Source of the DNA: a virus
Lineage: Duplodnaviria > Caudoviricetes
DNA: 64,000 nucleotides
Virus record (IMG/VR): IMGVR_UViG_3300011116_001227
Direction: 5' to 3' (one strand)
The position numbers and the translations under genes are program-made. Below, piece by piece: positions 4,301-19,608 of this stretch; within the stretch, counting starts at the first letter, position 1, and every line of letters begins with the position of its first letter. The notes under the pieces are model-generated. The model was not told where the DNA came from and searched no databases. It saw only the letters and a program-made list of their open reading frames with translations.

Positions 4301-4374
4301 CCTGTCACTGCTGGGGCTGAAAGATCAATCTCTCGCTCATAAAAGTTGGGCGACTTAAAAGTCTGCTCTGACAT
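1324..4374 (-). CDS. gp18: Tail sheath protein, 1016 aa
   Basis: N-terminal REIDLS/GPAFVPV and C-terminal PWFAPAGFNRA, INPIATFP, GQKTLQ, LDRVNVRRL, FEQN, PTRVVEFIAIDF motifs typical of T4 gp18-like sheaths. Confidence 0.95.
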   Translation of the reverse strand: MSEQTFKSPNFYEREIDLSAPAVTGPTGVPALIIGTANKGPAFVPVTVANFNEFAEVFGKLDPDKFGPYAANEFLKNRSSLSYIRVLGAGSNTTDAHLSNTAAYGVVNNAGFALAGTVAADSRHNGAVQFLVARHEVGTYEGSAAPVFSDNDSFAGSTYVNLVRGLLMTPNTAKVMVTDANGSIVASSFTPGSALNDDADLGSGKFKLIISSTLGSSFSVADGLGGIKVLTASFDPTDKDYIGKILNRDPDKFYQEQHYLHADFAVDPAVAFASGSAQSRVGILSGSANSSATGDSSKTFREVYGSYNTRFTSPKTTSFISQPFGKTEYDLFHFEAIDDGEYANQLYKISISNLKASTNDANRYGTFTVQVRNWDDTDQTVQVIEQFSNCTLDPDSPNYVAKLIGDRKVFYNFDSTISSEKRIVATGKYANKSRYVRIVMNSMVEEKQVPQNSLPFGFKGAHLVNLNPNLKSSDALQSSKARLDGQLNSSFNSLSASFLPPVPMRFKVTRGEMASSPVFIGQPGNSELANPALYWGVKFERDSVASDPTGTSLLNPNVVTEKNNLLGSLTKFMGIEKLDALVTGSNADLLNNNKFTLSNVVLFNNSIGDLTSSINAHMKEAAYIRNAALDNTKYTYSENGRNRMSFATLLASGSASDFNKFSTFMKFTNFMYGGFDGTNMLDRNSRRMNDKSVSFDSGGGASTNNAVQGFATNPAGQDVNNSGVASYLTAINIATDPLVANNNILAIPGIREPYINDNAMSKVKDYGLAMHVMDIPSYDDSGNRLYDDSTGKPNINYVCNELDARNIDNNYAATYFPDVYVDDATNSRRVKVPASVAALGALGFNDRVSYPWFAPAGFNRAALDFVTNVAVRLNVSDRDRMYESRINPIATFPRLGFVIYGQKTLQINKSALDRVNVRRLMLEIKRIIIGIAQKIVFEQNTPAVRNKFVADASFQLGLIQVQAGIEGFQVIMNETNNTQDDADLNRLNGRIVVVPTRVVEFIAIDFIVTNSGVQFV

Positions 4375-6350: not shown

Positions 6351-7529
6351 TTATCCTATTACGATAGATTTTCCTGATGGCATAGGGATATACCTCAGAC
6401 TCTTGTTAAGATTTTCTGCTGTGAGAGCGTCAGTTTCTATCAGCTTGGCTCTCGTCAAGTTTGATAAAAATTCTTTTAACTGTGTAATTAGTTTGTCCTT
6501 GTCTTCTCTACCCTGCGTAACAAGTGATTCACCATTCAGCTGAAGATCAGCATTTGGAATAGGAATACTCTGAAATTTAGAGCGAATTAGACCTAATAAC
6601 TCTCTGCAAAGCGCAAGAGTATATTGACGAATCCACTGACGTCCAGGTTGTGTGATGCTTCTAAATGGAAGATTTCCATAAGGAATATTCTCTGGTCCTG
6701 AAATACCGTAGATAGAATCGTCTTTAAAGGCTGTAGGATTAAGTGGATCTTTTCTTGGCATTACTTTGCAATAAACTCTTCCCACTTGTGATTCAAGTAC
6801 TGGAATCGGGAATAGACGAAGTTTGCTTCCAATTAATTGATAACTGTATTGTGATCTTCTCACTCTGAATGCAGTTTCTAACATTCCTCTTCTTAAAACA
6901 TCTTCAAATACTGGAAGAACGTAGAACACTGTTGAGTTGATGTACGACTCATAGTTGAAGTTTGTCGCCAAGTAGTTTGTAATATTTGACGCGTTTAAAA
7001 GAAAGTGTTGTGCAGCAATTGGCTCAAAGTGAAACAATTCTACAATTTTTAACTTTCCTTTAGATCCGCTTGGAATAGTGTCGTAAATGTTTAAATTTGT
7101 TTGAGCGTCTTTTAAGTCAGCGTACAAATCGTAGTCTTGTTTGTCGCCTACGACGTCAAAATAGCCTAAAATAGGATTGTAGGAACCTCCTACGTTGGTC
7201 TCAGAAGCATACGCATCTGCCATTCTTGTTAAGAACTCCAACGTATTCCTTGTGTACTTATTTGTCAGATCTGTTGATCCTGTAGGCATTCCTAAAACGT
7301 TTGACAATTCAGACACAATTTTCATTTCATGAATATTTTTGCTATATTCACAGCATGCTTCTTCAAAACATGCCCATATCTCTTTCTTAGTCAATTCAAC
7401 GCTAAGAACATCGTCACCTAACTTTCTTTTTACAAAGTTGACCATGCTGTCAGCTTCAGACTGAAAGTCAGTATCTGAATCAAAAAAACCGAACGGTGTA
7501 GGATTCACAATGTCCGTAAAAGATGCCAT
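6351..7529 (-). CDS. Neck protein/head-tail adaptor (T4 gp13-like)
   Basis: VKRKLG..VLSVELT, WIRQYTLALCRELLG.IRSKF and LNGESL motifs of gp13-like adaptors. Confidence 0.7.
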   Translation of the reverse strand: MASFTDIVNPTPFGFFDSDTDFQSEADSMVNFVKRKLGDDVLSVELTKKEIWACFEEACCEYSKNIHEMKIVSELSNVLGMPTGSTDLTNKYTRNTLEFLTRMADAYASETNVGGSYNPILGYFDVVGDKQDYDLYADLKDAQTNLNIYDTIPSGSKGKLKIVELFHFEPIAAQHFLLNASNITNYLATNFNYESYINSTVFYVLPVFEDVLRRGMLETAFRVRRSQYSYQLIGSKLRLFPIPVLESQVGRVYCKVMPRKDPLNPTAFKDDSIYGISGPENIPYGNLPFRSITQPGRQWIRQYTLALCRELLGLIRSKFQSIPIPNADLQLNGESLVTQGREDKDKLITQLKEFLSNLTRAKLIETDALTAENLNKSLRYIPMPSGKSIVIG

Positions 7530-7556
7530 CTAAAACTCCGAGTACAATCGTACAGA

Positions 7557-7563
7557 TAAATAT
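7557..7563 (-). promoter_or_regulatory. Putative late-promoter motif ATA(N)TTA upstream of the neck operon
   Basis: Minus strand ATATTTA about 28 nt upstream of the ATG; the same heptamer recurs upstream of many structural genes (see findings). Confidence 0.5.
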
Positions 7564-7611
7564 CATTAGGAAAAACTAATCATTAACAAACTCAACAAAA
7601 CAGGTGATATT

Positions 7612-8400
7612 GTGAAAATAATAAAATTTGGTTCATCAGGAGAAGACGTTTCTACGTGGCAAATTTTTTTAAGAGGACTAAAAGAAGACAGCCATGTAAT
7701 TGTCAATGGCTTCTTTGACAATCAGACGAACGCAGAAACAAAAGAATTTCAAGCAAAATCAAATCTAAAAAACGACGGAATAGTCGGTCCTTCGACATTG
7801 GCCGTAGCTTTAAATTTAGGTTTTTGCTTGATGTCAGATGATTCAATTGACGAGAATAGTTCTAATTGGCCCGTTCTGCCTTCACCAAATCAATTTTTAA
7901 GCCCGCAAGCAAGAATTAAATTATTTGGAGCTTTTACTTACGAATCTGCACCTGTTTCGTCAAATCCAGAAGCCATAATCATAAAGGGAGATTGGGTTGC
8001 AAAAAATATAAAGAGTGTAGCAATTCCTCAACTCAAAGGATTAGCTGGCGCTCCTGCAAATTTGGCTGTTCAAATAAATGAAAAGATTGCTGATCAGACA
8101 ATCAAACTATTCACAGCTTGGGAATCAGCAAATCTAAAAGATAAAATTAAAACGTGGGGCGGATCTTGGGTACCTAGATTTATTAGAGGATCTAGATCAA
8201 CATTATCAAATCATGCATGGGGAACGGCATTTGATATAAATGCACAATGGAACATGCTTGGATCTACTCCAGCATTAAAGGGACAGCTAGGGTCGACTAG
8301 AGAACTAGTTCAAATAGCTTACGAACACGGTTTCTATTGGGGAGGCTGGTTTCCTGGTCGACCTGATGGAATGCACTTTGAAGCTTACAAAATTCTATAG
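7612..8400 (+). CDS. Endolysin-like peptidoglycan peptidase: PG-binding domain plus M15 family peptidase
   Basis: N-terminal GSSGEDV..WQ..L...NGFFD..T....KEFQ....L..DGIVGP.T PG-binding repeat; C-terminal SNHAWGTAFDIN and DGMHFE zinc-ligand motifs of M15 peptidases. TTG/GTG-type start taken from the track. Confidence 0.85.
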   Translation: MKIIKFGSSGEDVSTWQIFLRGLKEDSHVIVNGFFDNQTNAETKEFQAKSNLKNDGIVGPSTLAVALNLGFCLMSDDSIDENSSNWPVLPSPNQFLSPQARIKLFGAFTYESAPVSSNPEAIIIKGDWVAKNIKSVAIPQLKGLAGAPANLAVQINEKIADQTIKLFTAWESANLKDKIKTWGGSWVPRFIRGSRSTLSNHAWGTAFDINAQWNMLGSTPALKGQLGSTRELVQIAYEHGFYWGGWFPGRPDGMHFEAYKIL

Positions 8401-8628
8401 TCACATACCAGAAATTAAAGCTTGCACAGCAGTCTTAACTCTTTCTTGCAATTCTTTAGGAAGTGCTGCAAGAAGAACATAATTTTCAACTTTTTGAGAA
8501 GATGCTGGTACACCTCCAGCAACATACTCTTGATTAACTGTAACTACAGTTCTAAGAACTAGAGGAGGAAGGCCTGGTCTGTTTGCGTAAATTGGTTGAT
8601 AAAGATCAGCGTTGTTATTCATGTTCAT
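8401..8628 (-). CDS. Hypothetical protein, about 75 aa
   Basis: ORF track; fits a tightly packed minus-strand run. Confidence 0.55.
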   Translation of the reverse strand: MNMNNNADLYQPIYANRPGLPPLVLRTVVTVNQEYVAGGVPASSQKVENYVLLAALPKELQERVKTAVQALISGM

Positions 8629-8804
8629 CCTTTTAAGATATTGTTAGACTTAGCGAGTGCTTCGTTCATATTGGACATCATCTGTCTAATCTTTAGCAAC
8701 TCTTCTTCTAATTCTTCAACATTCTTGCCTAAAGATCTGTCTTCTTCGATTCTAGCAAGAAGATTCACGTATAATTCATGCAGTTTTTCTGATGATGCGG
8801 GCAT
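8625..8804 (-). CDS. Small coiled-coil hypothetical protein (MPASSEKLHELY...)
   Basis: Start trimmed from the track's 8909 to the ATG at 8804, which removes most of the overlap with the upstream ORF; heptad-like Leu/Glu sequence. Confidence 0.5.
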   Translation of the reverse strand: MPASSEKLHELYVNLLARIEEDRSLGKNVEELEEELLKIRQMMSNMNEALAKSNNILKG

Positions 8805-9081
8805 TTTTTTGTCCTTTCTTGTTAACTTCTTCACTTTCGATTTTGATCTGACTATTATTTTTATTGAGATCGCTAACTCTCTTCTCTTCTTGAAGAATCC
8901 AAGATTCAAACTTTGTTTTGTTAGTTTGATCTTGAACAGTCTGCATATTTTGAAGAATTATTGATCTTAATTCTAACAAAAGATTTTGTTGAGCATCTCT
9001 GCTGTCTGCTTCTACGACTTTCGTCGTAAGAAGAGTTTCATATAGAAAAATTGTCTCAGTAGGGGTTAAAGATAAAAGCAT
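8776..9081 (-). CDS. Hypothetical protein (MLLSLTPTET...)
   Basis: ATG at 9081 preceded by a GGAGGT Shine-Dalgarno; trimmed from the track ORF. Confidence 0.55.
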   Translation of the reverse strand: MLLSLTPTETIFLYETLLTTKVVEADSRDAQQNLLLELRSIILQNMQTVQDQTNKTKFESWILQEEKRVSDLNKNNSQIKIESEEVNKKGQKNARIIRKTA

Positions 9082-9155
9082 TTTTACCTCCAGAAAAATT
9101 AAAAACGGCACACCTTTCGATGCGCCGTCTTATTCTACAATATTTTAATTTAAAA

Positions 9156-9419
9156 TCACCAAGCCTTGTCAGTAAATCTATAATGCTTCTGAAGAGCACG
9201 ATAGATTGTACGGGCTTCACGTCCATCAAAACGGAAAGTATCACCATTTGGTGAATCAACAAAAAGAACAGTTGAATCACTCACAGGATTTGTGCTAACT
9301 GCAACTGTAATTCCTGTATTACGGCGAGTCGTCTCTGTTCGAAGCTTTCCAGTACGATCTTCACGCGAAACAATTGTAGAATTACGATTAGCTGATTGTG
9401 TGTTCTTACGTCGTGTCAT
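9156..9419 (-). CDS. Hypothetical protein, 87 aa
   Basis: ORF with a GAGGT RBS 6 nt upstream of the ATG. Confidence 0.65.
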   Translation of the reverse strand: MTRRKNTQSANRNSTIVSREDRTGKLRTETTRRNTGITVAVSTNPVSDSTVLFVDSPNGDTFRFDGREARTIYRALQKHYRFTDKAW

Positions 9420-9423
9420 AATT

Positions 9424-9479
9424 TACCTCTGTAATATTAGAACCAGTGGTTCCTATGCTTCTATAATAAGACAGAGGTA
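9424..9479 (-). promoter_or_regulatory. Leader hairpin sequestering the RBS of the 87-aa gene
   Basis: Perfect 9-bp inverted repeat TACCTCTGT (9424-9432) / ACAGAGGTA (9471-9479); the proximal arm contains the GAGGT RBS. Internal GAACC-AGT-GGTTC mini-stem. Confidence 0.5.
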
Positions 9480-9507
9480 TGTCTATGTTCAAAACTTGAT
9501 CTTGTAA

Positions 9508-9816
9508 TTATTTTTCTTCAATCTTAGACATCAGTATACCAACCTTCTTAGAAGCATCTGGGTCTGCTGCAAGCAAAGCTTTTACAAATGCTAAAAGAGC
9601 TGCTCCCTTGCTAGCATCGCCCTTTTTGGCAGCGAGAACTGCAACTTTTAATGTCTGTTCATCCATGCCTAATTGATTAGCGATCTCTTTTGTATTGAGC
9701 TGTCCCTTTGTGTCTGTTTTTTCGCCTTTTGCAGAAGCTGCTGAGTCTTCTCCTCCTTCTCGAAGAATCTCTTGACGAATAATTTTACGTAATTGTAGTT
9801 CTGTTAATTTTATCAT
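9508..9816 (-). CDS. Small putative internal head protein with KLTxxxLxxIIxxE N-terminal motif
   Basis: MIKLTELQLRKIIRQEILREGG; motif shared with ORFs starting at 23074, 23542 and 29020; ATACTTA motif upstream. Confidence 0.6.
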   Translation of the reverse strand: MIKLTELQLRKIIRQEILREGGEDSAASAKGEKTDTKGQLNTKEIANQLGMDEQTLKVAVLAAKKGDASKGAALLAFVKALLAADPDASKKVGILMSKIEEK

Positions 9817-9954
9817 TTTTTTTACTTTATTTAAGTATCCAAGAAATTTATTCGGGTCCCAGAGTTTAAATATAAAAAATTACTAAATTATTGGCTGTTG
9901 CCAACAAAAACAAAAGGCGATATTTTCTAATGCCCTGCTTATTAAACAAAGCAG

Positions 9955-11556
9955 TTATTTCGAATTAATTAATCCTGATATAATATTGGGTGAATTACCA
10001 AATTCTGCAGTCTTATTTCCGTCACCTCTAGCAACAGCATAAACTGCTGCAGTTGAAGCAAAAGAAGAAACCTGTTCAGATGTCTTTGACACGTCATCTG
10101 CACCAGTGACCGGATTGAATCCAACAGCATTCTTTCCTCCAACCTTGTTGGCATAAACATGTCCAAACCAACCGTTCTTGATGTTTGCTTTAGGATCCAT
10201 AACATAGAGCCAATTGCAACCGTCGGGAGTTGCGTCAGGCCACGCATTTCCTTGAAGTGGTGTATGAGGAGTATCGCCATATGCGACAAACGTCGTGTTT
10301 TGATCTAGCTTTTCTGTCACACTCTCAGGATCAGTCTGCTGTGACAGATAGTTGTAGAAGCCATTCAGGACCTTCCCTAGGTGTTTTGTGGTATTTCTGC
10401 CTTGGTTCATTAAGGTAGAATTATCAAATGTAACGTGGGGGTCTGTGAAGGTCGTGTCGGAGGTCGGTCCTGGGGATAATGCTACTATCGCAGTCTTCGA
10501 TAACCCAAGAGTAAATGCCTTAGCAACTACGATAAGAACTCTACCAAATTCTTCTATTTGATTTTTTTGAGAAGGCGTCATATAAGAAGAAGATGAAGCT
10601 GCACCGTCGAGCATCTCTTGAATTCCAAAATCAGATAAGTCTTGGCTTGTTGGAGTCAACTGCGAAGCAAAGTTAAGTCCAATGATTCGTGCTGCATTCT
10701 TTGTGACAGACATCTGAGGTAACCATGTAGATCGGCTAGAAGACTTTCTTAGTCCGACAAGTGCTTTATAATAGACCTCAAATAACTCCTGATCGTTTTT
10801 GCTGATTAGAGCAAATTGACTTGCTGCAGAATTAAAAAGATCGATCATTCCTGCAGAGCTTGGAACAGTTGCTACTTCAGGAGCACCTGGCGCTCTTCCA
10901 TACTTGACGGGATCTATTCCAAGGACAGGTACAATCGCGCCTGAACCTGCTGATCCGAGAGATGCAAGTGCTGCCACCATAGTAGAATTACCAGACAATG
11001 ATGTAGAAGAAGTTGGAAATTCTGTGTGTGTCTCATCCTTTCCAGACATGAAGGCAGAGACAGGATACTTTGGGGTTCCTGTAGAATGATCGAACCAAGG
11101 AGCATCAGGACCATAGAAGAAAGGTCTGTCACCGCCTGACCAACTCTTTACGCCAGCTGGAAGAGACGGAATGACATTTCCCTTACCTGATGTGTACGTT
11201 CCACGGTATCCGCTTCCCGGATTGTATCCGTACTGAGACGTATAGAGGTAAGAAGAAAATCCACCGAACTGCGATGTTAATCCAGGAACGTTGGCATTTT
11301 GACATGCCTTGAGACCAACATCAGCGACGGGCCACAGTTCTTGAAACCACGCCTGTGATCCATTTGGAGCTGGTACTATTAATGAACGACCAAATGTAGA
11401 TCCGGCAGCTTCAGCAAGTCCCGATCCACCCTCGTCTGATAAAAAGTTTAAAAGTTTACTTCTCTCAATTCCCACAGCAGCAGCAACAACTGTGCACATT
11501 TTTAGAAATGTTCTGCGTTGTTCTCCTCGAAGATCTTTTAATTTCCAGTTAGACAT
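9955..11556 (-). CDS. Tat-exported DUF1501/DUF1552-like protein, 533 aa
   Basis: Twin-arginine signal QRRTFLK followed by a hydrophobic stretch; C-terminal FTDPH and TFVAYGDTPHTP segments resemble the D-x-H and (G)EFGRTP regions of DUF1501-type proteins. Confidence 0.6.
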   Translation of the reverse strand: MSNWKLKDLRGEQRRTFLKMCTVVAAAVGIERSKLLNFLSDEGGSGLAEAAGSTFGRSLIVPAPNGSQAWFQELWPVADVGLKACQNANVPGLTSQFGGFSSYLYTSQYGYNPGSGYRGTYTSGKGNVIPSLPAGVKSWSGGDRPFFYGPDAPWFDHSTGTPKYPVSAFMSGKDETHTEFPTSSTSLSGNSTMVAALASLGSAGSGAIVPVLGIDPVKYGRAPGAPEVATVPSSAGMIDLFNSAASQFALISKNDQELFEVYYKALVGLRKSSSRSTWLPQMSVTKNAARIIGLNFASQLTPTSQDLSDFGIQEMLDGAASSSSYMTPSQKNQIEEFGRVLIVVAKAFTLGLSKTAIVALSPGPTSDTTFTDPHVTFDNSTLMNQGRNTTKHLGKVLNGFYNYLSQQTDPESVTEKLDQNTTFVAYGDTPHTPLQGNAWPDATPDGCNWLYVMDPKANIKNGWFGHVYANKVGGKNAVGFNPVTGADDVSKTSEQVSSFASTAAVYAVARGDGNKTAEFGNSPNIISGLINSK

Positions 11557-11569
11557 TTTTTACCTCGAT

Positions 11570-12604
11570 TCACTGACAAGAATGTGCTGCACTGAGAAGA
11601 GCAGCTACTGCGATAATCCTCTTTTTATTTAAATCGCTTAGATCATTTGGATTTGCTTTCTGAATAATTAAATTGCACAGAAGCATGTGATCATCCGTAG
11701 CTGCTTGTCCAATTAAGCAACTCACATTTTCTTCTACACAACTACCATCTGACACGTTAAACATTGGCTTGTTCTTTCCATTTAAAGTGCATGCAGGCGC
11801 TTTTGAAGGATCAGAAATATTTGTAATAATTTGAGGTGCAGCTTGAATAAAAATATCCATAATTTTCATTGCAGATGCAGTAGTATGTTCATCCTTTTCG
11901 CCTAGACGAGAATCAAGCTTAGGCACACCTAACGCATTCTTACCTGTATAATAAAGGTAACCAGGCGTTGAAATTTTAGTTACACAGTAACCATCTTTTG
12001 CGTCAGGAGAGTTGTTTCCGACGTCAAGACAAGTACGATTAATTTCGTTCTGCTTGTCATCCTGATTGCAGAAGCACGCTTCTCCGTTTGGACACAATGG
12101 ATCATTACCTTGTCCGGATCCGTTTGCGGTGGTGTCAGCCATTTCACAAGCTGAATTACCTCCGCCAAAAACGTTACCTAACGACTGAGAAGCACCAAAA
12201 ATTGTTACTTGCGTAGTTTTTAAATCAGAAACACTGCCTTGAGGAATTGAGGCTCCACGTGAACGCAACAAATTACCAAGCTGCGTATATGATAATTTAT
12301 GGCAGCTATGCAGTCTAGAAATAATTTCATCTGCAGCAGGAGGCTGATAAGATGGAACTACACTCATACCACCAGAACCATCTTGTGAAGATCCGCTCGA
12401 TGAAGAACTAGATGATGTTGAAACTAAAGAATTTGTTCCACCTGAGCCTGCCATAGAAGATGAAGATACAGATGACACTGCTTCCTGTTCAGGGCAATCG
12501 TATTCTTCAATATCTGGTGGAGTAGATCCACAAGCTAAAATTAATACAAACAGTGTTGCAAATCCAAATAGATTCTTGTTCATTTTAAAACCTCGTGAAA
12601 TCAT
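11570..12604 (-). CDS. Cys-rich putative lipoprotein with Ser/Gly linker, 344 aa
   Basis: Signal-like MNKNLFGFATLFVLILA-C; poly-Ser/Gly linker; more than 10 cysteines. Confidence 0.65.
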   Translation of the reverse strand: MISRGFKMNKNLFGFATLFVLILACGSTPPDIEEYDCPEQEAVSSVSSSSMAGSGGTNSLVSTSSSSSSSGSSQDGSGGMSVVPSYQPPAADEIISRLHSCHKLSYTQLGNLLRSRGASIPQGSVSDLKTTQVTIFGASQSLGNVFGGGNSACEMADTTANGSGQGNDPLCPNGEACFCNQDDKQNEINRTCLDVGNNSPDAKDGYCVTKISTPGYLYYTGKNALGVPKLDSRLGEKDEHTTASAMKIMDIFIQAAPQIITNISDPSKAPACTLNGKNKPMFNVSDGSCVEENVSCLIGQAATDDHMLLCNLIIQKANPNDLSDLNKKRIIAVAALLSAAHSCQ

Positions 12605-14063
12605 CTGAGACTAGAATTTCTCTAAACACTTTCTTTAAGTTATAGTTGTTAGACTTAAACATAACGACAAACTTCGACATTGTCATTAATTCTGGATTTG
12701 GATCATTTCGATCAGGCATACTAACCCAGTTTCTTCCACCGACTTCTGTGATATCTGATCTACCCATCGCATAATTCCACATCCTCTTGACGGCGCACTC
12801 AAGGACTTCATCATCCTTTGACATCTGCTGTCCTAACTCTGACAGACTAGATGCAGGTGCAGGTGTTTCTACGCCATTAACTTTCATAACCTTCTTCCAC
12901 GCAGTTCCATTCTGACCTCCATTAGGACACTTTGAAGGATCAATGCAAAGCCAGTCTGATAACTTTGCACGTGGTGATCCAGGAACAGGAACGAATACTG
13001 AATATTCTCCTGCACCTGTCAGCATCTGATAGACGCCTTTTGAATCGAATTGTGAAAATAGCGGTGCTCTATGATTCCACGTCGCATGACAGTTTGCACA
13101 CACGTTGGCAACGTTATAGGCATGAAAGTCAATTCTACCTCCGTTACATGCACCGGCAATTTCATCGACGGACCATTTATTTTGGTACCCAGGAATCGGA
13201 GTTCCACCGCTACAGGGAGGATTTTGTGGAGGAACATCAGTCGGCTCTCCTCCTGCCTGCTCATTTCCATTTCGACAAAGAAAAGTCTCGTGGAAGAATC
13301 GATTTCGCCTGAACGAAAGATTTCCAAAGAAGATACTTTGAACGCCTGGATCAGTTAAAATTCCTGACGACTTCATCCCGACTCCCATGTTGTTACAATT
13401 ACCGTCAGAGAACACGTGAGTCGTCTGATTGTATGTGGGACACGCGTTGGCATCTTGAGTCAGCAACAATCTCCAATCTTTTTCTTCATAGAAGATTCTT
13501 GCAGCTAATGTGGGGGCAGTCTCACGAGTCGGTTCACCCGGTGTAGTGGAGGGACCGGACATCTTGAAGGTGTAGCGATAAAAGTCCAACATGGTATCAG
13601 CAAAACGAGGATCTGCGAGCTTCTTATCAATGAGCTCTTCATACTTTGCCTTCTGTAGGTCTTTTGGCAAATCGCTCAGCTGATAGATTTCAGAAACTGT
13701 AGGTACGTCTCCAACAATCAGAAAACTCGCTGTTCTTAAGGCTTCTGAATAATCGACTTCTCTCTCGTCCAACTCTGTCTTTTCTAATTGAGGTTGATTT
13801 CCTGATCCTGTAGAAACAGTAGATGAGACTTCTGCAACAGTTGCAACAATTTCATTTCCTGAAGTTGTTGTAGAAGATTTTTCACTTGGAACTACAACTT
13901 CACCAGATCCTGTCGATGGAGTAGGACAGTACTTGTAAATCGATGCTGAAGTGTCACCTGAGGCTTTATTCGGATTAGGACGTTCACACCCGTAGAATAA
14001 GAACGCCATAGAAACAATAACAAAAAAACTACGTTTTAAGAATTTGTTCTTTTCTTCTGACAT
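12585..14063 (-). CDS. Putative lipoprotein/c-type cytochrome with DUF1549/DUF1588/DUF1585-like segments, 492 aa
   Basis: Signal ending FLFYG-C; LRTASFLIVGDVPT and YEELIDKKLADPRF (DUF1549-like), GILTDPG (DUF1588-like), a single CANCH heme-binding motif, CAVKRMWNYAMGR and YNLKKVFREILVSDDF (DUF1585-like). Confidence 0.65.
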   Translation of the reverse strand: MSEEKNKFLKRSFFVIVSMAFLFYGCERPNPNKASGDTSASIYKYCPTPSTGSGEVVVPSEKSSTTTSGNEIVATVAEVSSTVSTGSGNQPQLEKTELDEREVDYSEALRTASFLIVGDVPTVSEIYQLSDLPKDLQKAKYEELIDKKLADPRFADTMLDFYRYTFKMSGPSTTPGEPTRETAPTLAARIFYEEKDWRLLLTQDANACPTYNQTTHVFSDGNCNNMGVGMKSSGILTDPGVQSIFFGNLSFRRNRFFHETFLCRNGNEQAGGEPTDVPPQNPPCSGGTPIPGYQNKWSVDEIAGACNGGRIDFHAYNVANVCANCHATWNHRAPLFSQFDSKGVYQMLTGAGEYSVFVPVPGSPRAKLSDWLCIDPSKCPNGGQNGTAWKKVMKVNGVETPAPASSLSELGQQMSKDDEVLECAVKRMWNYAMGRSDITEVGGRNWVSMPDRNDPNPELMTMSKFVVMFKSNNYNLKKVFREILVSDDFTRF

Positions 14064-14075
14064 ATAGACTCATTA

Positions 14076-14082
14076 TAACTAT
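14076..14082 (-). promoter_or_regulatory. Putative late-promoter motif upstream of the exported three-gene module
   Basis: Minus strand ATAGTTA about 13 nt upstream of the ATG at 14063. Confidence 0.4.
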
Positions 14083-14140
14083 AAATTGAATGGTAAGATA
14101 AACTTTTAAAAAAATACAACATGTAATTAAGCAATTATTT

Positions 14141-14494
14141 TTAAGAATTTTTTAAAGTCAAATGAGATAAACGATGATGCTTCTTTCTAAGAACAAGAGG
14201 ATTGTCTTTGACGAGCCAGAATTCTTTCTCTAGCGGAGGTTCTTCTCCTGCTTTAAACCACATCAACTTTCTTCCGCAAGACGAAGAATATACGCCAATT
14301 ATCGTTATCTCTCCAGCATGAATTAGATCATGACACGTGTGACACACTATAGCCAAATTGTGATTGTCGTTGGAGCATCGAGGATCGCACCGCGGAATGA
14401 TGTGGTGAAAGTTCAACGCCGCAGACCGATCAAACCCACAGACCTCGCACTGTTTTTTGACGAGTTTAGGTTGATTTCTGCTGCGACGCTTCAC
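14141..14494 (-). CDS. HNH endonuclease, 117 aa
   Basis: CEVCG...FHHIIP...NDNHNLAIVCHTCHDLIH: classic zinc-bound HNH motif. Confidence 0.85.
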   Translation of the reverse strand: MKRRSRNQPKLVKKQCEVCGFDRSAALNFHHIIPRCDPRCSNDNHNLAIVCHTCHDLIHAGEITIIGVYSSSCGRKLMWFKAGEEPPLEKEFWLVKDNPLVLRKKHHRLSHLTLKNS

Positions 14495-14581
14495 TCGCTT
14501 TATTATACAATTCAGCGAAAATCTTAAATGAAATCAACGATACAATTATGACAACTCGTTCGCAGAAGGATATATAAAGAC

Positions 14582-15286
14582 ATGTTGTACGACAAGATTG
14601 TTCGTCGGCTGCTGAAAGAATCAAAGCTCGATTCATTCGCTCGTCAAATTAACAGAATGACGATGGACGGCATAAAAAACGTTATTTCTTCTAAATCGAC
14701 AAAAAGAAAAAATAAATTTCGATTTAAAAACGAAGCAACCGACAAAGATGGCACATCTATAGAGGTTGTCACTGACGTATTATTTCGCGAGAACAACAAT
14801 CGAGTGTCCGTAAGTGCCGGCTGGGACTGGCAAAATAGAGTAATGGACGTTCTCGTAAAAATTCCCGATGGAGTCGACAACTATAAAAATCTGCAAGAAA
14901 TTCAATCGAAGCTCTACGAAGCTATTAGACACGAGCTGGAACATTCCACACAAAGTGACGAAGAGGTTGATTCAGCAGAAGAAGCATATCACGACTTCGA
15001 ACAAGACAAATACGACATTGACGCGATTAAGAACTACTACTCTAACGAATCAGAAATACCTGCATTCGTTGCTGGTATTTATCACGCAGCAAAGCGTCTT
15101 CGAAAACCATTCTACCAATTAATGGAAGACAGGTTGGAAAAAATAAAGAAAAATATGAGCAAAAGAGCTGATGATATAGAACCCAGCTACATCAATTCAT
15201 CCGTAGAAGAAATAAGAACTGCGTGGAAAAATTACGCAAGTTTAAGATTTCCGAAAGCAGTCTTAAACAATACCTCAAATGATTAA
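14582..15286 (+). CDS. Putative zinc metallopeptidase-like protein (HExxH)
   Basis: AIRHELEH followed about 40 aa later by YYSNESEIPAF (third-ligand Glu region). Confidence 0.6.
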   Translation: MLYDKIVRRLLKESKLDSFARQINRMTMDGIKNVISSKSTKRKNKFRFKNEATDKDGTSIEVVTDVLFRENNNRVSVSAGWDWQNRVMDVLVKIPDGVDNYKNLQEIQSKLYEAIRHELEHSTQSDEEVDSAEEAYHDFEQDKYDIDAIKNYYSNESEIPAFVAGIYHAAKRLRKPFYQLMEDRLEKIKKNMSKRADDIEPSYINSSVEEIRTAWKNYASLRFPKAVLNNTSND

Positions 15287-15309
15287 TTAATTGTCTGGCG
15301 TAGCATGCA

Positions 15310-15399
15310 TTAAGAGTTAAGCGACGCGGACGTTCGTATCCGCAGATTTCACAATGGTCTTTTACACAATTTTTCTTTTCAACGTCTGCGTCGCTTCAC
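15310..15399 (-). pseudogene. Degenerate 5' fragment of an HNH gene paralogous to 14141-14494
   Basis: With one in-frame TGA, a +1 and a -1 frameshift it reads VKRRRR*KEKL/VKDHCEICGYER/ASLN versus VKRRSRNQPKLVKKQCEVCGFDRSAALN; both begin GTGAAGCG(A/T)CGCAG. Confidence 0.65.
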
Positions 15400-15436
15400 A
15401 AGAAAGATTATAAGCAAATTATCGTGTTGTTAAATT

Positions 15437-15460
15437 AAAAAACCGCAGCAGAGCCGCGGT
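15437..15460 (-). terminator. Intrinsic terminator downstream of 15486-15935
   Basis: Minus strand ACCGCGG-CTCTG-CTGCGGT stem-loop (one G-U pair) followed by a T run. Confidence 0.7.
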
Positions 15461-15485
15461 CTCTTAAAACACAAAGTGATTGTTC

Positions 15486-15935
15486 TCAGGTTCCGCTGAA
15501 TGTCATCGTTCCTGAAACTGCTGTCTGCAAGAAAGACTTGCCGTCGCAGATATAAGCTGCTGCATTGCCAAGAATCGCTTGAAATGTAGATTTGCTGCCG
15601 TGACCAGCATTGTTTCCTGTTCCCGCAGATCCAGCAAACACTAGAGTTCCAGGATCTTCTTGAGAGCCTGTAAGGACGTGTGCCGTTGCAGAAGCATTTC
15701 TAAAAACGAAAAGAGATCCTGGCACTGTCGCTGCAAGAGGCATTGTAACAGTAACAGCAGATGCGCCGCTGATTGTGTACACGCCGCCAGCAACGAGTGT
15801 TGTGTTTGATGTAATAGGCGTAATTGTAACGACTGGTGTTGATGCAAATGTAATTGCAGAATCAATCTGCACGCCTGTCTGACCGCCAATCTGATTGAAA
15901 CCTGATGTGTCGTCAATCTTAACTTTAATACTCAT
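15486..15935 (-). CDS. Putative virion structural protein, Thr/Ala/Gly-rich beta protein, 149 aa
   Basis: Composition and the TITPITSNTTL..GGVYTI..AVTVTMP pattern typical of fibre/decoration domains; AAGGAG RBS and ATATTTA motif upstream. Confidence 0.5.
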   Translation of the reverse strand: MSIKVKIDDTSGFNQIGGQTGVQIDSAITFASTPVVTITPITSNTTLVAGGVYTISGASAVTVTMPLAATVPGSLFVFRNASATAHVLTGSQEDPGTLVFAGSAGTGNNAGHGSKSTFQAILGNAAAYICDGKSFLQTAVSGTMTFSGT

Positions 15936-16029
15936 TGTGATTTTTCTCCTTGAATTTCCCCCACACTAAAATTGGGACACACTAAATATAGACTAGTCGA
16001 TTATTTAAAATAATTGTTCTATAGTCGAA

Positions 16030-16473
16030 TTATTTAGACATCATATAAGACTTGAATGCATCACTTCCAATAGCGTGATGCTTTCCTTCAATCTGATAAT
16101 AAAGATTCACACCGACGTTTAACGACCATTGCACCATCCAATTGAGAGTCTTAACGTCAAGTTTTCCCCCTGCTTCTGCAACCTCATAATGCGTGAGATC
16201 AGGTTGAGAAGGTAAAATAATTTTTGAAATTATGACTCCTGTTAAGTCAGGTCTCATCCACTCTGGAAAAGTTTCCTGCTCGGCGAGCCACGCGCAATTA
16301 TACGTTTTGCATACATCTGGACGACCTACATAATCAGTACATTTTCCTTTCGAGAGAAAGAAACAAGGACAACCTGGATACATGCTGTGACCTTTAATAT
16401 TAGCTGACAACCATCCTTCACAACACTTTGTGCATTCTCCACAAGTTCTATTTGCAATTTTTAATTGTTTCAT
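16030..16473 (-). CDS. YkgJ-like cysteine-cluster (CxxCxxCC) protein
   Basis: RTCGECTKCCEG...CFFLSKGKCTDYVGRPDVCKTYNC; start trimmed to the ATG at 16473 (MKQLKIANRT). Confidence 0.75.
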   Translation of the reverse strand: MKQLKIANRTCGECTKCCEGWLSANIKGHSMYPGCPCFFLSKGKCTDYVGRPDVCKTYNCAWLAEQETFPEWMRPDLTGVIISKIILPSQPDLTHYEVAEAGGKLDVKTLNWMVQWSLNVGVNLYYQIEGKHHAIGSDAFKSYMMSK

Positions 16474-16753
16474 CTGATTCCCAGTTTGATTTACCCACTG
16501 GATAACACTTGTAACATCTGCTGCCTCTTTCAAATGCTTGAAGAGTCTTTGGTTGAACTTCTCCACACTTCACGCATTCAAATTTGAGATACTGCTGTTG
16601 TCTTGATCTGTATTCTTCTAGATTTGTAATTAATTTAAACTCTTTTGATCTCTCTAATATTCTTTCTTCTATTGTTAAAGTTACCAACATTTTATTTTCA
16701 GATATTTTTTTAAGAGTCTCCTGGGTGTGGTGTCGACCATAAAAATGGTTTCC
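16448..16753 (-). pseudogene. Truncated NUMOD3/Zn-ribbon homing endonuclease remnant
   Basis: Upstream of and in frame with the track ORF is GNHFYGRHHTQETLKKISENK (NUMOD3-like) with no start codon; then CVKCG...CYKCYP..KSNWE, which stops before any nuclease domain. Confidence 0.65.
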
Positions 16754-16757
16754 GGGA

Positions 16758-16790
16758 ATACATTAACTGAATGTTTATAAACTACAAAGG
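16758..16790. repeat. 33-bp direct repeat, copy 1
   Basis: ATACATTAACTGAATGTTTATAAACTACAAAGG; one mismatch to 17642-17674. Confidence 0.9.
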
Positions 16791-17730: not shown

Positions 17731-19608
17731 TCATATCACGTTCATGTCCAAGCATGTGACAGTCCCGAAGAAATCACTTCGGACCATCTTCTTGCCGTAG
17801 CGAGTCATCACGCCTTTTCTTGGCGTAAAGTCCTCAGGAGCGAAGATGGTGGGTGTCACAATGAGTGGAACGTATGGAGCGTAGACGTAGCCGGTCTCGA
17901 GGTAGGAGCCGCCCTTGTAGCCGACGAGGATCTTGTTACGTGGGAAGTAAGGATCCTTGTAGACTGTGAAGCGGTTAGAAACTGAGCCGATTGCCTCTGC
18001 ACCGATTGTGAATGGAGAAGCGACCTGTCCCTCGCCATCGATAGAAAGCTTTGGCTTGTAGAGGACAGAGCTCTCGAGGATCGTTGCAACATCTGGGCCG
18101 CAGACCATGAAGTTTGCAGAGCCACGGAGTGTCTTGCGGTGAATGGTGTTCGCAACGTCGATGACTGTCTCAACGAGTGTCTCGTACCACTCACGAACTG
18201 TACCGGTGAAGGCTGGTCCGATCTGGAGGCCATCAGCGAGGGCAGAGCGTGCTCCTGTAACCTTGTTAACGAAGCGACCAGGTGAACGTGACCAGTAGTA
18301 GTTAGCGCCGTTTGCCTGTGTGACGAGGTCGTTGAGGATCTCGCGGTCGATCTCGAGAGCAATTTGCTCAGAGAGGATCGAGGTGAGCTCAACCTCTGCG
18401 TCCATCGAGTGATAGGCGTTGAGGTCTTGCGCGAGTTCAGGTGACCAACGTGCGCGGAGCTTGCGGGTCTCAGCTGTCACAGCGATAGACTCGATACGGA
18501 TGTCGATCTCTGGGATAACTGGAGATGGGTTTGATCCGAAGTCAGATTCGAAAGAAGGCACTGTAACTGTGCTGCCAGCTGTGCTGTCAACTGAGAGTGC
18601 AGATGAAACAGCGTATGTTACGTGAGCTGTGGCTGTACCTTGAAGCTGAGATGTGTTTGTTGCTGCAACAAGTGCGAGAAGGTGTGCACCGCCGAGTGGG
18701 TTTGGTGTCCAAACCTTAGAGGTGTTGTTCCAGTCACCGCGCTTGTTGAGGCGACGAAGGTTCTTGATGCCTGTGCCACCTTGGAAAGCCTCGCCCCATG
18801 CGAGTGCGTTGGTGAGACCGCTGTGAACAGCGACCTGATCGATTGCAAGTGCGTCGACGTTTGATCCGAGATCGGAGAGCTTGACAACGACGAATGCAGC
18901 ATCGAGTGTTCCTAGTGCAAGAGCATTCTCGACCTGTGGGTCGAAATCTGCGTAGCGAGCGTTAGATCCGCTGAACATGGAATCAGATGTGATCATTGCA
19001 CCCTCAACCCATGTACCAGCAGCGTTCCAAGAACCTGAAGCGTTTCCTGTTGCTGATGCGTCGTAGGTGAGATCGAGTGTAGAAACTGATCCTGTCACGC
19101 GGCTGTAACCTGCACCAACGAGGTCGTACATACCACCAGCTGCAAGAGATCCAGATTGGACGCCCTTACCACGTGGGTTGTTGTAGATAGATTGACCTGC
19201 GGTGTATGTTGATGTAGAATCTCCGCTGATTTGACCAACGTTTGTTCCGTAGGTGTAATCAAGGTAGAAGATTAGACCTGATGGGAGGCTCATTGGTTGG
19301 ATGGAGACGAGCTCGTTGGCAACGAGGCCACCGAACACGCGGCGGACGATTGGGAATGCGATGTTGCTGAAGCCCTGGATCTGACCGGAAGAAGCAATGT
19401 TTCCGCCGCCAGAAGAAAGAGCTGAGCTCTCCTTGAGGACCTGTGCTGCTTGGTTCTCGAGAAGCTGTGACATCATCTCGCGGCGTTGACCGTCGAGTCC
19501 ACGGAGGAGGCCTGTGCGGCTCCACTTCTCTGTTAAACGGGCGCGCTCTGCACCAACGTGCTTGTCGCGAATGCCCTGTGCTAATTGATCTAAGCTAAAA
19601 TACTTCAT
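17731..19608 (-). CDS. gp23: Major capsid protein (T4 gp23-like), 625 aa
   Basis: FPIVRRVFGGLVANELVSIQPMSLPSGLIFY, AETRKLRARWSPELAQDLNAYH, EIDREIL, YAPYVPL, GVMTRYG. Confidence 0.97.
   Translation of the reverse strand: MKYFSLDQLAQGIRDKHVGAERARLTEKWSRTGLLRGLDGQRREMMSQLLENQAAQVLKESSALSSGGGNIASSGQIQGFSNIAFPIVRRVFGGLVANELVSIQPMSLPSGLIFYLDYTYGTNVGQISGDSTSTYTAGQSIYNNPRGKGVQSGSLAAGGMYDLVGAGYSRVTGSVSTLDLTYDASATGNASGSWNAAGTWVEGAMITSDSMFSGSNARYADFDPQVENALALGTLDAAFVVVKLSDLGSNVDALAIDQVAVHSGLTNALAWGEAFQGGTGIKNLRRLNKRGDWNNTSKVWTPNPLGGAHLLALVAATNTSQLQGTATAHVTYAVSSALSVDSTAGSTVTVPSFESDFGSNPSPVIPEIDIRIESIAVTAETRKLRARWSPELAQDLNAYHSMDAEVELTSILSEQIALEIDREILNDLVTQANGANYYWSRSPGRFVNKVTGARSALADGLQIGPAFTGTVREWYETLVETVIDVANTIHRKTLRGSANFMVCGPDVATILESSVLYKPKLSIDGEGQVASPFTIGAEAIGSVSNRFTVYKDPYFPRNKILVGYKGGSYLETGYVYAPYVPLIVTPTIFAPEDFTPRKGVMTRYGKKMVRSDFFGTVTCLDMNVI

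Follow-up and report, generated by a model that had tools for sequence, protein, structure and literature searches.

The window analysed here, a stretch of 64,000 nucleotides from the Caudoviricetes record IMGVR_UViG_3300011116_001227, harbours three tightly packed, co-oriented open reading frames on the minus strand at positions 9955–14063, an arrangement already reported in a sequence-only reading of this DNA. Gene A (12585–14063, 492 aa) encodes a lipoprotein assigned to the PSCyt2/PSCyt3/PSD2 superfamily and carrying a CxxCH motif, gene B (11570–12604, 344 aa) a Cys-rich lipoprotein whose C-terminal core (~135 aa) is conserved and which also has a Ser/Gly linker of low complexity, and gene C (9955–11556, 533 aa) a Tat-signal protein with a DUF1501/DUF1552-like fold of the alkaline phosphatase superfamily. 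In the ORF listing, the reading frames of A and B share 20 nt and a gap of 13 nt separates B from C. The three envelope-targeting signals described previously were all located, namely FLFYG-C in A (residues 21–26), LILA-C in B (21–25) and QRRTFLK in C (13–19). The placement of the trio inside the morphogenesis region is likewise borne out by the window annotation, in which genes for the gp23 capsid protein, sheath, gp15, adaptor and endolysin lie around it; the slot itself has the gp23 gene on one side and the endolysin, gp13, gp15 and sheath genes on the other, all on the same strand. Such a position between capsid and tail genes might suggest a part for the three proteins in virion structure or assembly, but this is very improbable, as export signals on all three would remove the products from the cytoplasm, where T4-like virions are assembled, their homologues are chromosomal operons outside phage contexts and the trio has no PHROG match.

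The signal peptide and lipobox of A (13986–14063, minus strand) read MSEEKNKFLKRSFFVIVSMAFLFYG followed by the lipobox Cys26. In both A and B the signal peptide ends in a lipobox with a small residue at position −1 (LFYG or LILA before the Cys), and this Cys is invariant in the 36 and 33 homologues compared, respectively. The single CANCH motif, a candidate c-type haem attachment site, occupies residues 322–326 (13086–13100, minus strand), at the start of a predicted helix spanning residues 320–336 (AF2 model, pLDDT 79). The lipobox Cys, C322, C325, H326, T328, N330, H331 and R332 are invariant in 36/36 homologues, down to 39% identity, so the Cys and His of the CxxCH motif are conserved throughout the family. 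Against the A protein of the window, the Pfam models PSCyt2/DUF1549 (PF07583; 24.6 bits, cut-off 29.8, E 2.7e-5) and PSD2/DUF1585 (PF07624; residues 405–436, 23.6 bits, cut-off 25.8, E 4.3e-5) score below threshold, and PSCyt3/DUF1588 (PF07627) aligns at E 0.12 with residues 312–346, a span that includes CANCH. Within the A family, PSCyt2 matches 30 of the 36 members at E ≤ 0.01 (best 5e-10), PSD2 matches 26, with precomputed PF07624 assignments on many close homologues, and PSCyt3 matches five at E ≤ 0.01. Foldseek searches of AFDB with the A model returned DUF1549/DUF1592/DUF1585/DUF1588 proteins (E 5e-12 to 1e-5; DUF1549 proteins, E 4e-10), and no solved structure homologous to A was found. 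By sequence and fold A is a probable member of the PSCyt2/PSCyt3/PSD2 ‘planctomycete cytochrome’ superfamily, as the earlier proposal of a DUF1549/DUF1585/DUF1588 relationship had anticipated. A is a lipoprotein anchored in the inner or outer membrane whose single CxxCH probably carries a c-type haem; we know of no demonstration of haem binding by a PSCyt-type CxxCH.

B is the Cys-rich lipoprotein noted previously, and 13 Cys in addition to its lipobox Cys25 are invariant in 33 homologues. B has no match in Pfam, NCBIfam or PHROG, the Pfam result extending to all 33 members, and its homologues form 211 clusters within 1.84 billion representatives. An assignment to PSD1/DUF1553 (PF07587) was considered and rejected, there being no Pfam match in the 33 members and only E 0.6 in hhalign against 24 PSD1 domains; the resemblance in shape is weak (TM 0.34–0.38) and comes from a low-confidence Atlas model. 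In some myxobacteria the C-terminal core of B is naturally fused to A, a Rosetta-stone arrangement in which a C homologue follows each fusion. B is probably a disulfide-rich lipoprotein and, on the strength of these fusions, it probably works bound to A.

The twin-arginine motif of C, QRRTFLK (11500–11520, minus strand), is followed by the hydrophobic stretch MCTVVAAAVGI and fits the Tat pattern S/T-R-R-x-F-L-K plus a hydrophobic stretch; R14, R15 and F17 do not vary across the 43 homologues. TIGR01409 scores C just below its cut-off (16.0 against 16.7 bits), TAT_signal matches 24/43 homologues and NCBI names homologues as Tat-signal proteins. The fold compares with a Myxococcota DUF1501 cluster of the Atlas (TM 0.57/0.65 over 380 residues, rmsd 4.9) and moderately with DUF1552 (Atlas, TM 0.49/0.57), and the C model retrieves DUF1501 entries from AFDB at E 2e-5 to 1e-3. 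As modelled, C thus has the core α/β fold of the alkaline phosphatase superfamily, closest to DUF1501/DUF1552. The description of C as a Tat-exported, DUF1501-like protein accordingly holds for the signal and the fold but not at the level of Pfam, profile comparison or motifs. Across the 43 homologues there was no match to Pfam DUF1501 (PF07394) at E ≤ 1 and none to DUF1552/HXXSHH (PF07586). Comparison by hhalign with 36 DUF1501 sequences was not significant, and that with DUF1552 aligned only the Tat signal and the R-x7-N-G of strand 1 (E 0.026, probability 2%). In Minicystis rosea, PF07394 is found in eight genes, none at the C locus. Judged against an alignment of 22 strong DUF1501 members made in this analysis, C lacks the GGxxD after strand 1, having g-N-G there, and has GDTPH instead of the EFGR...GRDH near the C-terminus; the HxxSHH of DUF1552 is replaced by D-E-T-H-T. 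Three invariant acid-x-His motifs, E175-T-H177, D372-P-H374 and D428-T-P-H431 (10264–11034, minus strand), each directly follow a predicted β strand and, given the fold class, form a candidate metal site. Among the 43 homologues no obvious invariant Ser/Thr/Cys nucleophile occupies the usual alkaline phosphatase position, T176 and T178 being only nearly invariant.

The intergenic region upstream of A (14064–14140, minus strand) contains a T-run and TATAGTTATAAT, a putative promoter-like element; the T-run and a TATAnT-like box ~8–12 nt before the ATG of A are kept in related phages. The ATAGTTA motif described earlier is indeed present, 13 nt upstream of this ATG, but its proposed tie to structural genes is weak. 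The window contains seven copies where 9.4 are expected, apart from A just three minus-strand ORFs (starts 1276, 17628 and 34865) have the motif upstream, and a scan of the window found none before the capsid or sheath genes. Contigs from RNA libraries match genes C and A, which is weak evidence for expression as DNA carry-over is possible.

A search of IMG/VR for syntenic trios identified at least 35 contigs with A-B-C in the same slot, to which one contig of 273 kb can be added. The trio is a clade-wide trait of large freshwater T4-like phages and is not confined to this phage. The bacterial affinity of its homologues, together with a GC content (42.5%) slightly above that of the rest of the window (36.8%), could be taken to indicate bacterial DNA misjoined into a phage contig. 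However, the bacterial copies have 61–69% GC and a GC3 of 0.77–0.97, whereas the phage copy is wholly phage-like, as had been observed from its composition. In addition, one 16-kb contig from an independent lake metagenome crosses both junctions of the block, and the run behind this DNA is a virome, near-identical DNA occurring in ~9 further studies. A chimera or host contamination, to which we attach a negligible probability, is ruled out by the IMG/VR synteny, the base composition and the junction-spanning contig. With its signals and CxxCH conserved and its junctions confirmed by independent assemblies, the block stands as a genuine phage module.

Cellular homologues of the trio were found solely in the class Polyangia of the Myxococcota, in the order A-B-C at 79/79 genome loci, and an extra gene for a CxxCH lipoprotein (X) lies upstream of A in 26–32 of the Polyangia loci. 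In the closest bacteria the trio occupies a syntenic chromosomal site, ClpB-GidB-[ABC]-GH35-antiporter. The phage C proteins form one clade (SH-aLRT 95) within a larger one of 100% support that also includes seven freshwater Polyangiaceae copies, among which the phage clade is nested and to which its proteins are 70–76% identical. The GC3 of C is 0.22–0.32 in the phages. Synonymous sites are saturated among the phage copies (pS ~0.77–0.80), whilst pN is 0.125 for C, 0.187 for A and 0.24 for B and dN/dS, where estimable, is 0.06–0.15; despite this saturation, C remains 80–87% identical among phage copies and is about as conserved as the capsid protein of the same phages. The phage-like GC3, saturated synonymous sites and conserved proteins indicate a single old capture of the trio followed by strong purifying selection. 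The earlier view that the phage has kept a whole host-derived extracytoplasmic three-gene module is thereby upheld, with conserved signals, a Polyangia origin and purifying selection. The gap in GC between phage (37%) and candidate hosts (61–69%) is unusually large, so the host assignment is one made by gene phylogeny alone.

Envelope remodelling, superinfection exclusion and redox support, the possible roles named in the earlier reading, are guesses. The phage proteins share 64–76% identity with the orthologues that bacteria encode at a conserved chromosomal locus, and every invariant motif is retained, which suggests that their biochemical task is still that of the host proteins and points away from a new, phage-specific binding role. 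This bears on the rival proposal that the trio has no metabolic role and alters or hides the phage receptor, or destroys receptors on debris, in the manner of T5 Llp, Cor and receptor-destroying enzymes. Two of the three products are envelope-directed lipoproteins, the genes sit amid late and structural genes, and surface polymers are abundant in Polyangia, all of which would suit superinfection exclusion or receptor masking; nevertheless, the architecture is unlike any known exclusion protein and we regard this explanation as rather improbable.

The trio is a small, phage-borne variant of a functionally unexplained and very large family of bacterial modules. The pairing of PSCyt/PSD proteins with Tat-exported DUF1501/DUF1552 proteins, invoked in the earlier description, is documented (PMC3542564, PMC5615132), and the same pattern of Tat, signal and cytochrome features has been noted for PSCyt plus DUF1501 modules (PMC3542564, PMC5615132). 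The modules compared here combine PSCyt1/PSCyt2/PSD1 (DUF1549/DUF1553) with a Tat-DUF1501 protein (Studholme 2004; Kamneva 2012, PMC3542564; He 2017, PMC5615132). As in those of Planctomycetota, Verrucomicrobiota and Lentisphaerota, which have many paralogues per genome, a helical PSCyt/PSD-type gene with CxxCH lies directly upstream of a Tat gene with an alkaline phosphatase fold, and both products are exported. The trio differs in that two lipoproteins, A and B, share the place of the PSCyt/PSD partner, A is without a PSCyt1 domain and has a PSD2-like end in place of PSD1, PF07394 misses C, which also lacks GGxxD, and the distribution is Polyangia and phages. A second comparison is with the DUF1592/DUF1588/DUF1585 (PSD4/PSCyt3/PSD2) plus DUF1552 pairs, which are abundant in Myxococcota, the phylum of the trio's bacterial homologues. 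In common with these, A has a PSCyt3-type CxxCH followed by a PSD2-like region, and C has R-x7-N-G after its first strand and a fold matching DUF1552 models. However, A is far shorter and without PSD3/PSD4/PSD5, C is missed by PF07586 and has D-E-T-H-T in place of HxxSHH, and gene B has no counterpart.

Electron transport has been proposed for PSCyt/DUF1501 modules (Kamneva et al. 2012, PMC3542564), and a redox or respiratory role has to be weighed for the trio. A, with X in bacteria, would then be a true cytochrome, and electrons would move through C, to or from a substrate in the periplasm, so that host energy metabolism is sustained. The invariant CxxCH of A, the additional CxxCH lipoprotein upstream in many bacterial loci and the Tat signal of C, suggestive of a cofactor-bearing enzyme, are in keeping with this. 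Against it, the fold of C belongs to hydrolases and transferases of the alkaline phosphatase superfamily, unlike known oxidoreductases, and the operon has a single haem motif and no quinone-linked or membrane-integral partner. We regard redox support, too, as rather improbable.

We consider it probable that the trio is a host-derived auxiliary operon, captured once and kept under selection, that encodes a haem-lipoprotein unit and a Tat-exported enzyme. An ancestor of the ~180–270 kb freshwater T4-like phage clade would have captured it from a freshwater Polyangiaceae-type myxobacterium. Following infection, it would be expressed from the phage's own promoter-like element, and host Sec/Lgt/Lsp, Tat and cytochrome c maturation would deliver the products to the periplasm, C being exported folded and probably with a metal. 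The A/B unit may assist C through substrate presentation or electron transfer, and C may act on a substrate of the envelope or the environment, cleaving or transferring a group of the phospho- or sulfo-ester type. To our knowledge, no member of the PSCyt/PSD or DUF1501/DUF1552 families has a known function, and the chemistry of C is consequently a guess from its fold class. The phage copy would maintain or increase an envelope activity of the host that is limiting for phage yield, most likely either release of nutrients (P or S) in oligotrophic lakes or modification of a surface polymer. Phage auxiliary metabolic genes serve nutrient acquisition elsewhere, for example cyanophage pstS/phoA. Like these, the trio is host-derived, envelope or periplasmic and selected in aquatic T4-like phages, and its enzyme class overlaps the phosphatases; unlike these, it is an operon of three genes for exported products, one of them a lipoprotein with a haem motif, its protein families are different and its link to phosphate is hypothetical.

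A more specific and distinctly tentative reading is that the trio is a minimal, self-sufficient PSCyt/PSD plus DUF1501/DUF1552 module, acting in the periplasm as an esterase or transferase that is assisted by a haem lipoprotein and whose activity is directly limiting for phage production. Examples of such activity are the freeing of phosphate or sulfate from organic esters and the editing of surface polymers. If correct, this would be the first auxiliary metabolic operon of its class and a compact three-protein model for working out what thousands of paralogues in planctomycetes, verrucomicrobia and myxobacteria do.

In Planctomycetota, Verrucomicrobiota and Myxococcota, few unexplained modules are as abundant as those of the PSCyt/PSD plus DUF1501/DUF1552 type, with tens of copies per genome (see also PMC3542564). 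That a lytic-type phage clade keeps a three-gene version, with C about as conserved as the capsid, suggests that the module's activity matters within one infection and can do without additional dedicated partners. The trio therefore narrows the hypotheses on module function and offers biochemistry a small expressible system. Among phage auxiliary genes it represents a new class, and it provides a host lead, freshwater Polyangiaceae, for which we know of almost no phages, for cosmopolitan uncultured freshwater jumbo-like T4 phages.

The three genes lie on the minus strand of a T4-like myovirus and follow closely upon one another: gene A (12585-14063; 492 aa) overlaps gene B (11570-12604; 344 aa) by 20 nt, and gene C (9955-11556; 533 aa) starts 13 nt past B, with GAGG before its start codon. 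Direct translation verified each of the motifs named in the sequence-only reading. The N-terminus of A is MSEEKNKFLKRSFFVIVSMAFLFYG followed by the lipobox cysteine, and CANCH occupies residues 322-326; the N-terminal signal of B ends in FATLFVLILA before its cysteine, and C, the Tat-signal protein, opens with MSNWKLKDLRGEQRRTFLK. The region is flanked by genes for the Gp23 major capsid protein (17731-19608, minus strand) and the tail sheath (1324-4374), and genes for a gp15-like sheath stabiliser, a head-tail adaptor and an M15 endolysin also surround the trio. The closest GenBank relatives of the capsid protein, from an uncultured 484-kb phage and from Flavobacterium phages, share only 46-48% identity with it; of its 625 residues the Gp23 domain is confined to about 340-614, and the long N-terminal extension has no family match. 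Directly upstream of A is an HNH endonuclease gene (14141-14494, minus strand), which is found in many, not all, related phage contigs (70-81% identity) and, given this patchy distribution, behaves like a mobile element inserted at the cassette margin.

An assembly chimera or contamination by host DNA would account for such genes in a phage contig, but this explanation is refuted by a contig spanning both junctions, by shared synteny and by composition. The source of the window is a viral metagenome, and near-identical DNA turns up in about nine further studies of lake, freshwater and river metagenomes. A single 16,052-nt contig from an independent lake sample covers positions 7000-9457 and 9754-16790, thus crossing both junctions between the trio and phage genes, and has 38 mismatches across 9858-16790. 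The GC content of the trio is 42.5%, against 36.8% for the remainder of the window, and lies at 38-44% in the remaining members of the clade, whose C genes have a GC3 of 0.22-0.32. The bacterial homologues, in contrast, have 58-69% GC (61-69% in all but one) and a GC3 of 0.66-0.97 (0.77-0.97 in all but one), so that the base composition, already described as phage-like from the sequence alone, argues against contamination. Adjoining the conserved trio, the stretch 9457-9857 downstream of C, around a 102-aa ORF (9508-9816), is a variable spot at which the lake contig carries unrelated sequence (296 nt skipped against 260 other letters, plus 120 inserted letters).

The sequence-only reading had pointed to IMG/VR for syntenic trios, and A-B-C does occur at the same place in 35 of its contigs, as well as in a 273-kb ENA contig, with the gp23 capsid gene upstream and the endolysin, gp13, gp15 and sheath genes downstream. 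A pattern-based search of IMG/VR with C and A profiles, which may miss distant copies, returned no second, distant phage-borne cassette: only one clade was found, within which C is 80-86% identical. The one exception was a truncated match to A at a contig end (L240; 59% over residues 6-216). Larger contigs with C at 48-66% identity, considered as candidate phages, all proved to be cellular. None of the three proteins matched any of 50,697 GenBank phage records by tblastn; the clade is absent from isolate collections. One protein of the phage clade (P0136, on the 187-kb contig L020, IMGVR_UViG_3300022752_005671) is publicly recorded under a 'Proteobacteria bacterium' MAG; since capsid, endolysin and gp13 genes lie on that contig, it comes from a phage and was binned as bacterial.

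In the window copy of A, Pfam matches are sub-threshold and comprise PSCyt2/DUF1549 (residues 100-163), PSCyt3/DUF1588 (312-346, spanning CANCH) and PSD2/DUF1585 (405-436). Among its homologues, PSCyt2 is detected in 30 of 36 (best E 5e-10), PSD2 in 26, PSCyt3 in five and DUF1800 in three; these matches support the proposed kinship of A with DUF1549/1588/1585 proteins, the window copy itself falling below threshold. The AlphaFold model of A (pLDDT 79), in which residues 37-92 form a disordered Ser/Thr/Gly linker, matches AFDB clusters of DUF1549, DUF1592, DUF1585, DUF1588 and a cytochrome c domain with E values from 5e-12 to 1e-5; no solved structure resembling it was found. The CxxCH motif, whose lack of conservation would have counted against the sequence-only reading, is conserved: the lipobox cysteine, six further cysteines and C322-x-x-C325-H326-x-T-x-N-H-R do not vary even among homologues with only 39% identity.

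Protein B has no family match in Pfam, NCBIfam or PHROGs (the latter two gave nothing useful), and its profile recovers only 211 clusters among 1.84 billion representatives, with conservation in the C-terminal ~135 residues. The possibility that B is a detached PSD1 domain was rejected, as an hhalign comparison of the B family with PSD1 domains gave no significant result; a low-confidence Atlas model bears a weak shape resemblance to PSD1, which is a lead only. In three independent long proteins (P0373, P0388 and P0409) the B core is found at the C-terminus of an A-type protein. Residues 1-441 of P0373 (L241:5001-6875, on a 530-kb myxobacterial contig) align to the whole A family with a probability of 100% and residues 490-624 constitute the B core, and a C homologue follows directly (39% identity, E 2e-108). 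PSCyt2 and PSCyt3 precede the B core in P0388 and P0409, with PSD2 in P0388 only. These Rosetta-stone fusions argue for A and B working as a single unit.

Protein C had been called DUF1501-like, which Pfam did not bear out: no domain other than the Tat signal was detected in any of 43 homologues. The named families that come closest amongst predicted structures are DUF1501 (Atlas TM 0.57/0.65 across 380 residues; AFDB E values no better than 2e-5) and DUF1552 (TM 0.49/0.57). Alignment of the C family to both families by hhalign was insignificant save for the Tat signal and first strand, and the C homologue of Minicystis rosea is not among the eight PF07394 genes of that genome. The C profile gave only a chance match to PDB sequences, and Foldseek against the PDB reached only E of about 0.1, although every row belonged to the alkaline-phosphatase superfamily. 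After strand 1, DUF1501 proteins carry GGxxD, whereas C has R-x7-N-G, a feature it shares with DUF1552. Its own invariant motifs, D-E175-T-H177-T, D372-P-H374 and G-D428-T-P-H431, each follow a predicted strand, and in the alkaline-phosphatase superfamily metal ligands follow strands. The most fitting description of C is that of a third, unnamed family alongside DUF1501 and DUF1552. Residues 30-52 (window about 11401-11469), immediately behind the hydrophobic stretch of the Tat signal, read LLNFLaDEGGxGLAEAA and are nearly invariant across the family yet modelled with low confidence, a finding unusual beside a signal-peptide cleavage site.

When one genome per species (185,579 species) was scanned with the C profile, a pattern-based search that copies elsewhere could escape, 79 loci were recovered, all in Myxococcota, and every locus assigned below phylum fell in the class Polyangia (Polyangiaceae, Polyangium, Byssovorax, Minicystis rosea, Chondromyces apiculatus, Labilithrix and Kofleriaceae). 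The order A-B-C is retained at each locus with enough flank, many genomes hold several paralogous copies, and one bacterial contig carries two trios in tandem. In 26-32 Polyangia loci (L003:6250-7572; L053, L062-L068, L072 and others) a further gene immediately upstream of A codes for a lipoprotein of 380-450 aa that has one or two CxxCH motifs and falls in no Pfam family; this gene is absent from the phage and the closest bacterial loci. The nearest cellular C proteins (69-76% identical) belong to freshwater Polyangiaceae MAGs from Lake Zurich, the Rimov reservoir and Lake Tanganyika. These MAGs and their relatives (L002, L209, L210 and others) share a syntenic chromosomal site: ClpB and GidB/RsmG lie upstream on the opposite strand, and most of the loci have a GH35 glycosidase and an Mrp-type antiporter downstream; no phage genes lie nearby. 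In L209, OmpA-like and FGE-sulfatase-family genes are also near the trio.

In a maximum-likelihood phylogeny built from 103 C proteins (quick IQ-TREE search, LG+C20, SH-aLRT only, midpoint root), all 28 phage rows form one clade (support 95). It falls within a larger clade of 100% support that also includes seven freshwater Polyangiaceae rows, and this larger clade is nested among deeper Polyangia clades. Together with the conserved chromosomal locus and a far greater diversity among the bacteria, this nesting indicates a single capture from bacterium to phage, a direction that depends on the midpoint root. The gene tree points to freshwater Polyangiaceae as the donor and hence as the probable host; the GC gap between the phage and these MAGs is large, at 25-30 points.

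Synonymous differences have reached saturation amongst 18-21 phage copies (median pS 0.77-0.80), whilst non-synonymous differences are 0.125 for C, 0.187 for A and 0.24 for B, and dN/dS is 0.06-0.15 where dS is finite. In its conservation across the clade C is roughly on a par with the major capsid protein (73-86%). All three genes are therefore functional in the phage, and enough time has passed since the capture for codon usage to ameliorate completely. In related phages a T-run and a TATAnT-like box are kept about 8-12 nt before the start codon of A, which makes a promoter of its own probable for the trio. The heptamer ATAGTTA, previously proposed as common to the trio and the structural genes, was rejected as their shared promoter: it occurs seven times in the window against 9.4 expected, and is absent before the capsid and sheath genes. 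Of its five minus-strand copies, four are found no more than 30 nt ahead of a start codon (starts 1276, 14063, 17628 and 34865), and it may be part of a promoter class serving a few genes. Two RNA libraries yielded short contigs that match gene C (267 nt, no mismatches) and gene A (216 nt, one mismatch), which is weak evidence of transcription.

The lipoprotein signals of A and B imply lipid anchoring on the periplasmic side, and the CxxCH of an exported protein is a substrate of cytochrome c maturation. The Tat route carries C across the membrane folded, which usually means that the protein takes up a cofactor or metal in the cytoplasm. In the favoured model a membrane-anchored haem-lipoprotein unit of A and B would serve an alkaline-phosphatase-fold enzyme, C, and the phage copy would maintain or raise the host activity of the module during infection. 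A complex prediction for C (53-533) and A (95-492) scored 0.00 and weighs neither way. By analogy of fold class, and given the oligotrophic lake setting, this activity is most likely the release of ester-bound nutrients or the modification of an envelope or surface polymer; receptor masking or exclusion, and pure electron transport, rank lower on the same grounds. Modules of PSCyt and DUF1501 proteins with the same outline have been published, their function being stressed as unknown (PMC3542564; PMC5615132). The module type is already known, but the three-gene variant of Polyangia is distinct and its enzyme escapes the DUF1501 and DUF1552 models. In line with the sequence-only reading, no paper on such a module in a phage was found in the literature under the DUF names, and the one phage paper that names DUF1501 describes just a weak match in a 61-aa protein. 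The trio is a solid, somewhat surprising auxiliary operon and gives a tractable way into a large family of unknown function.
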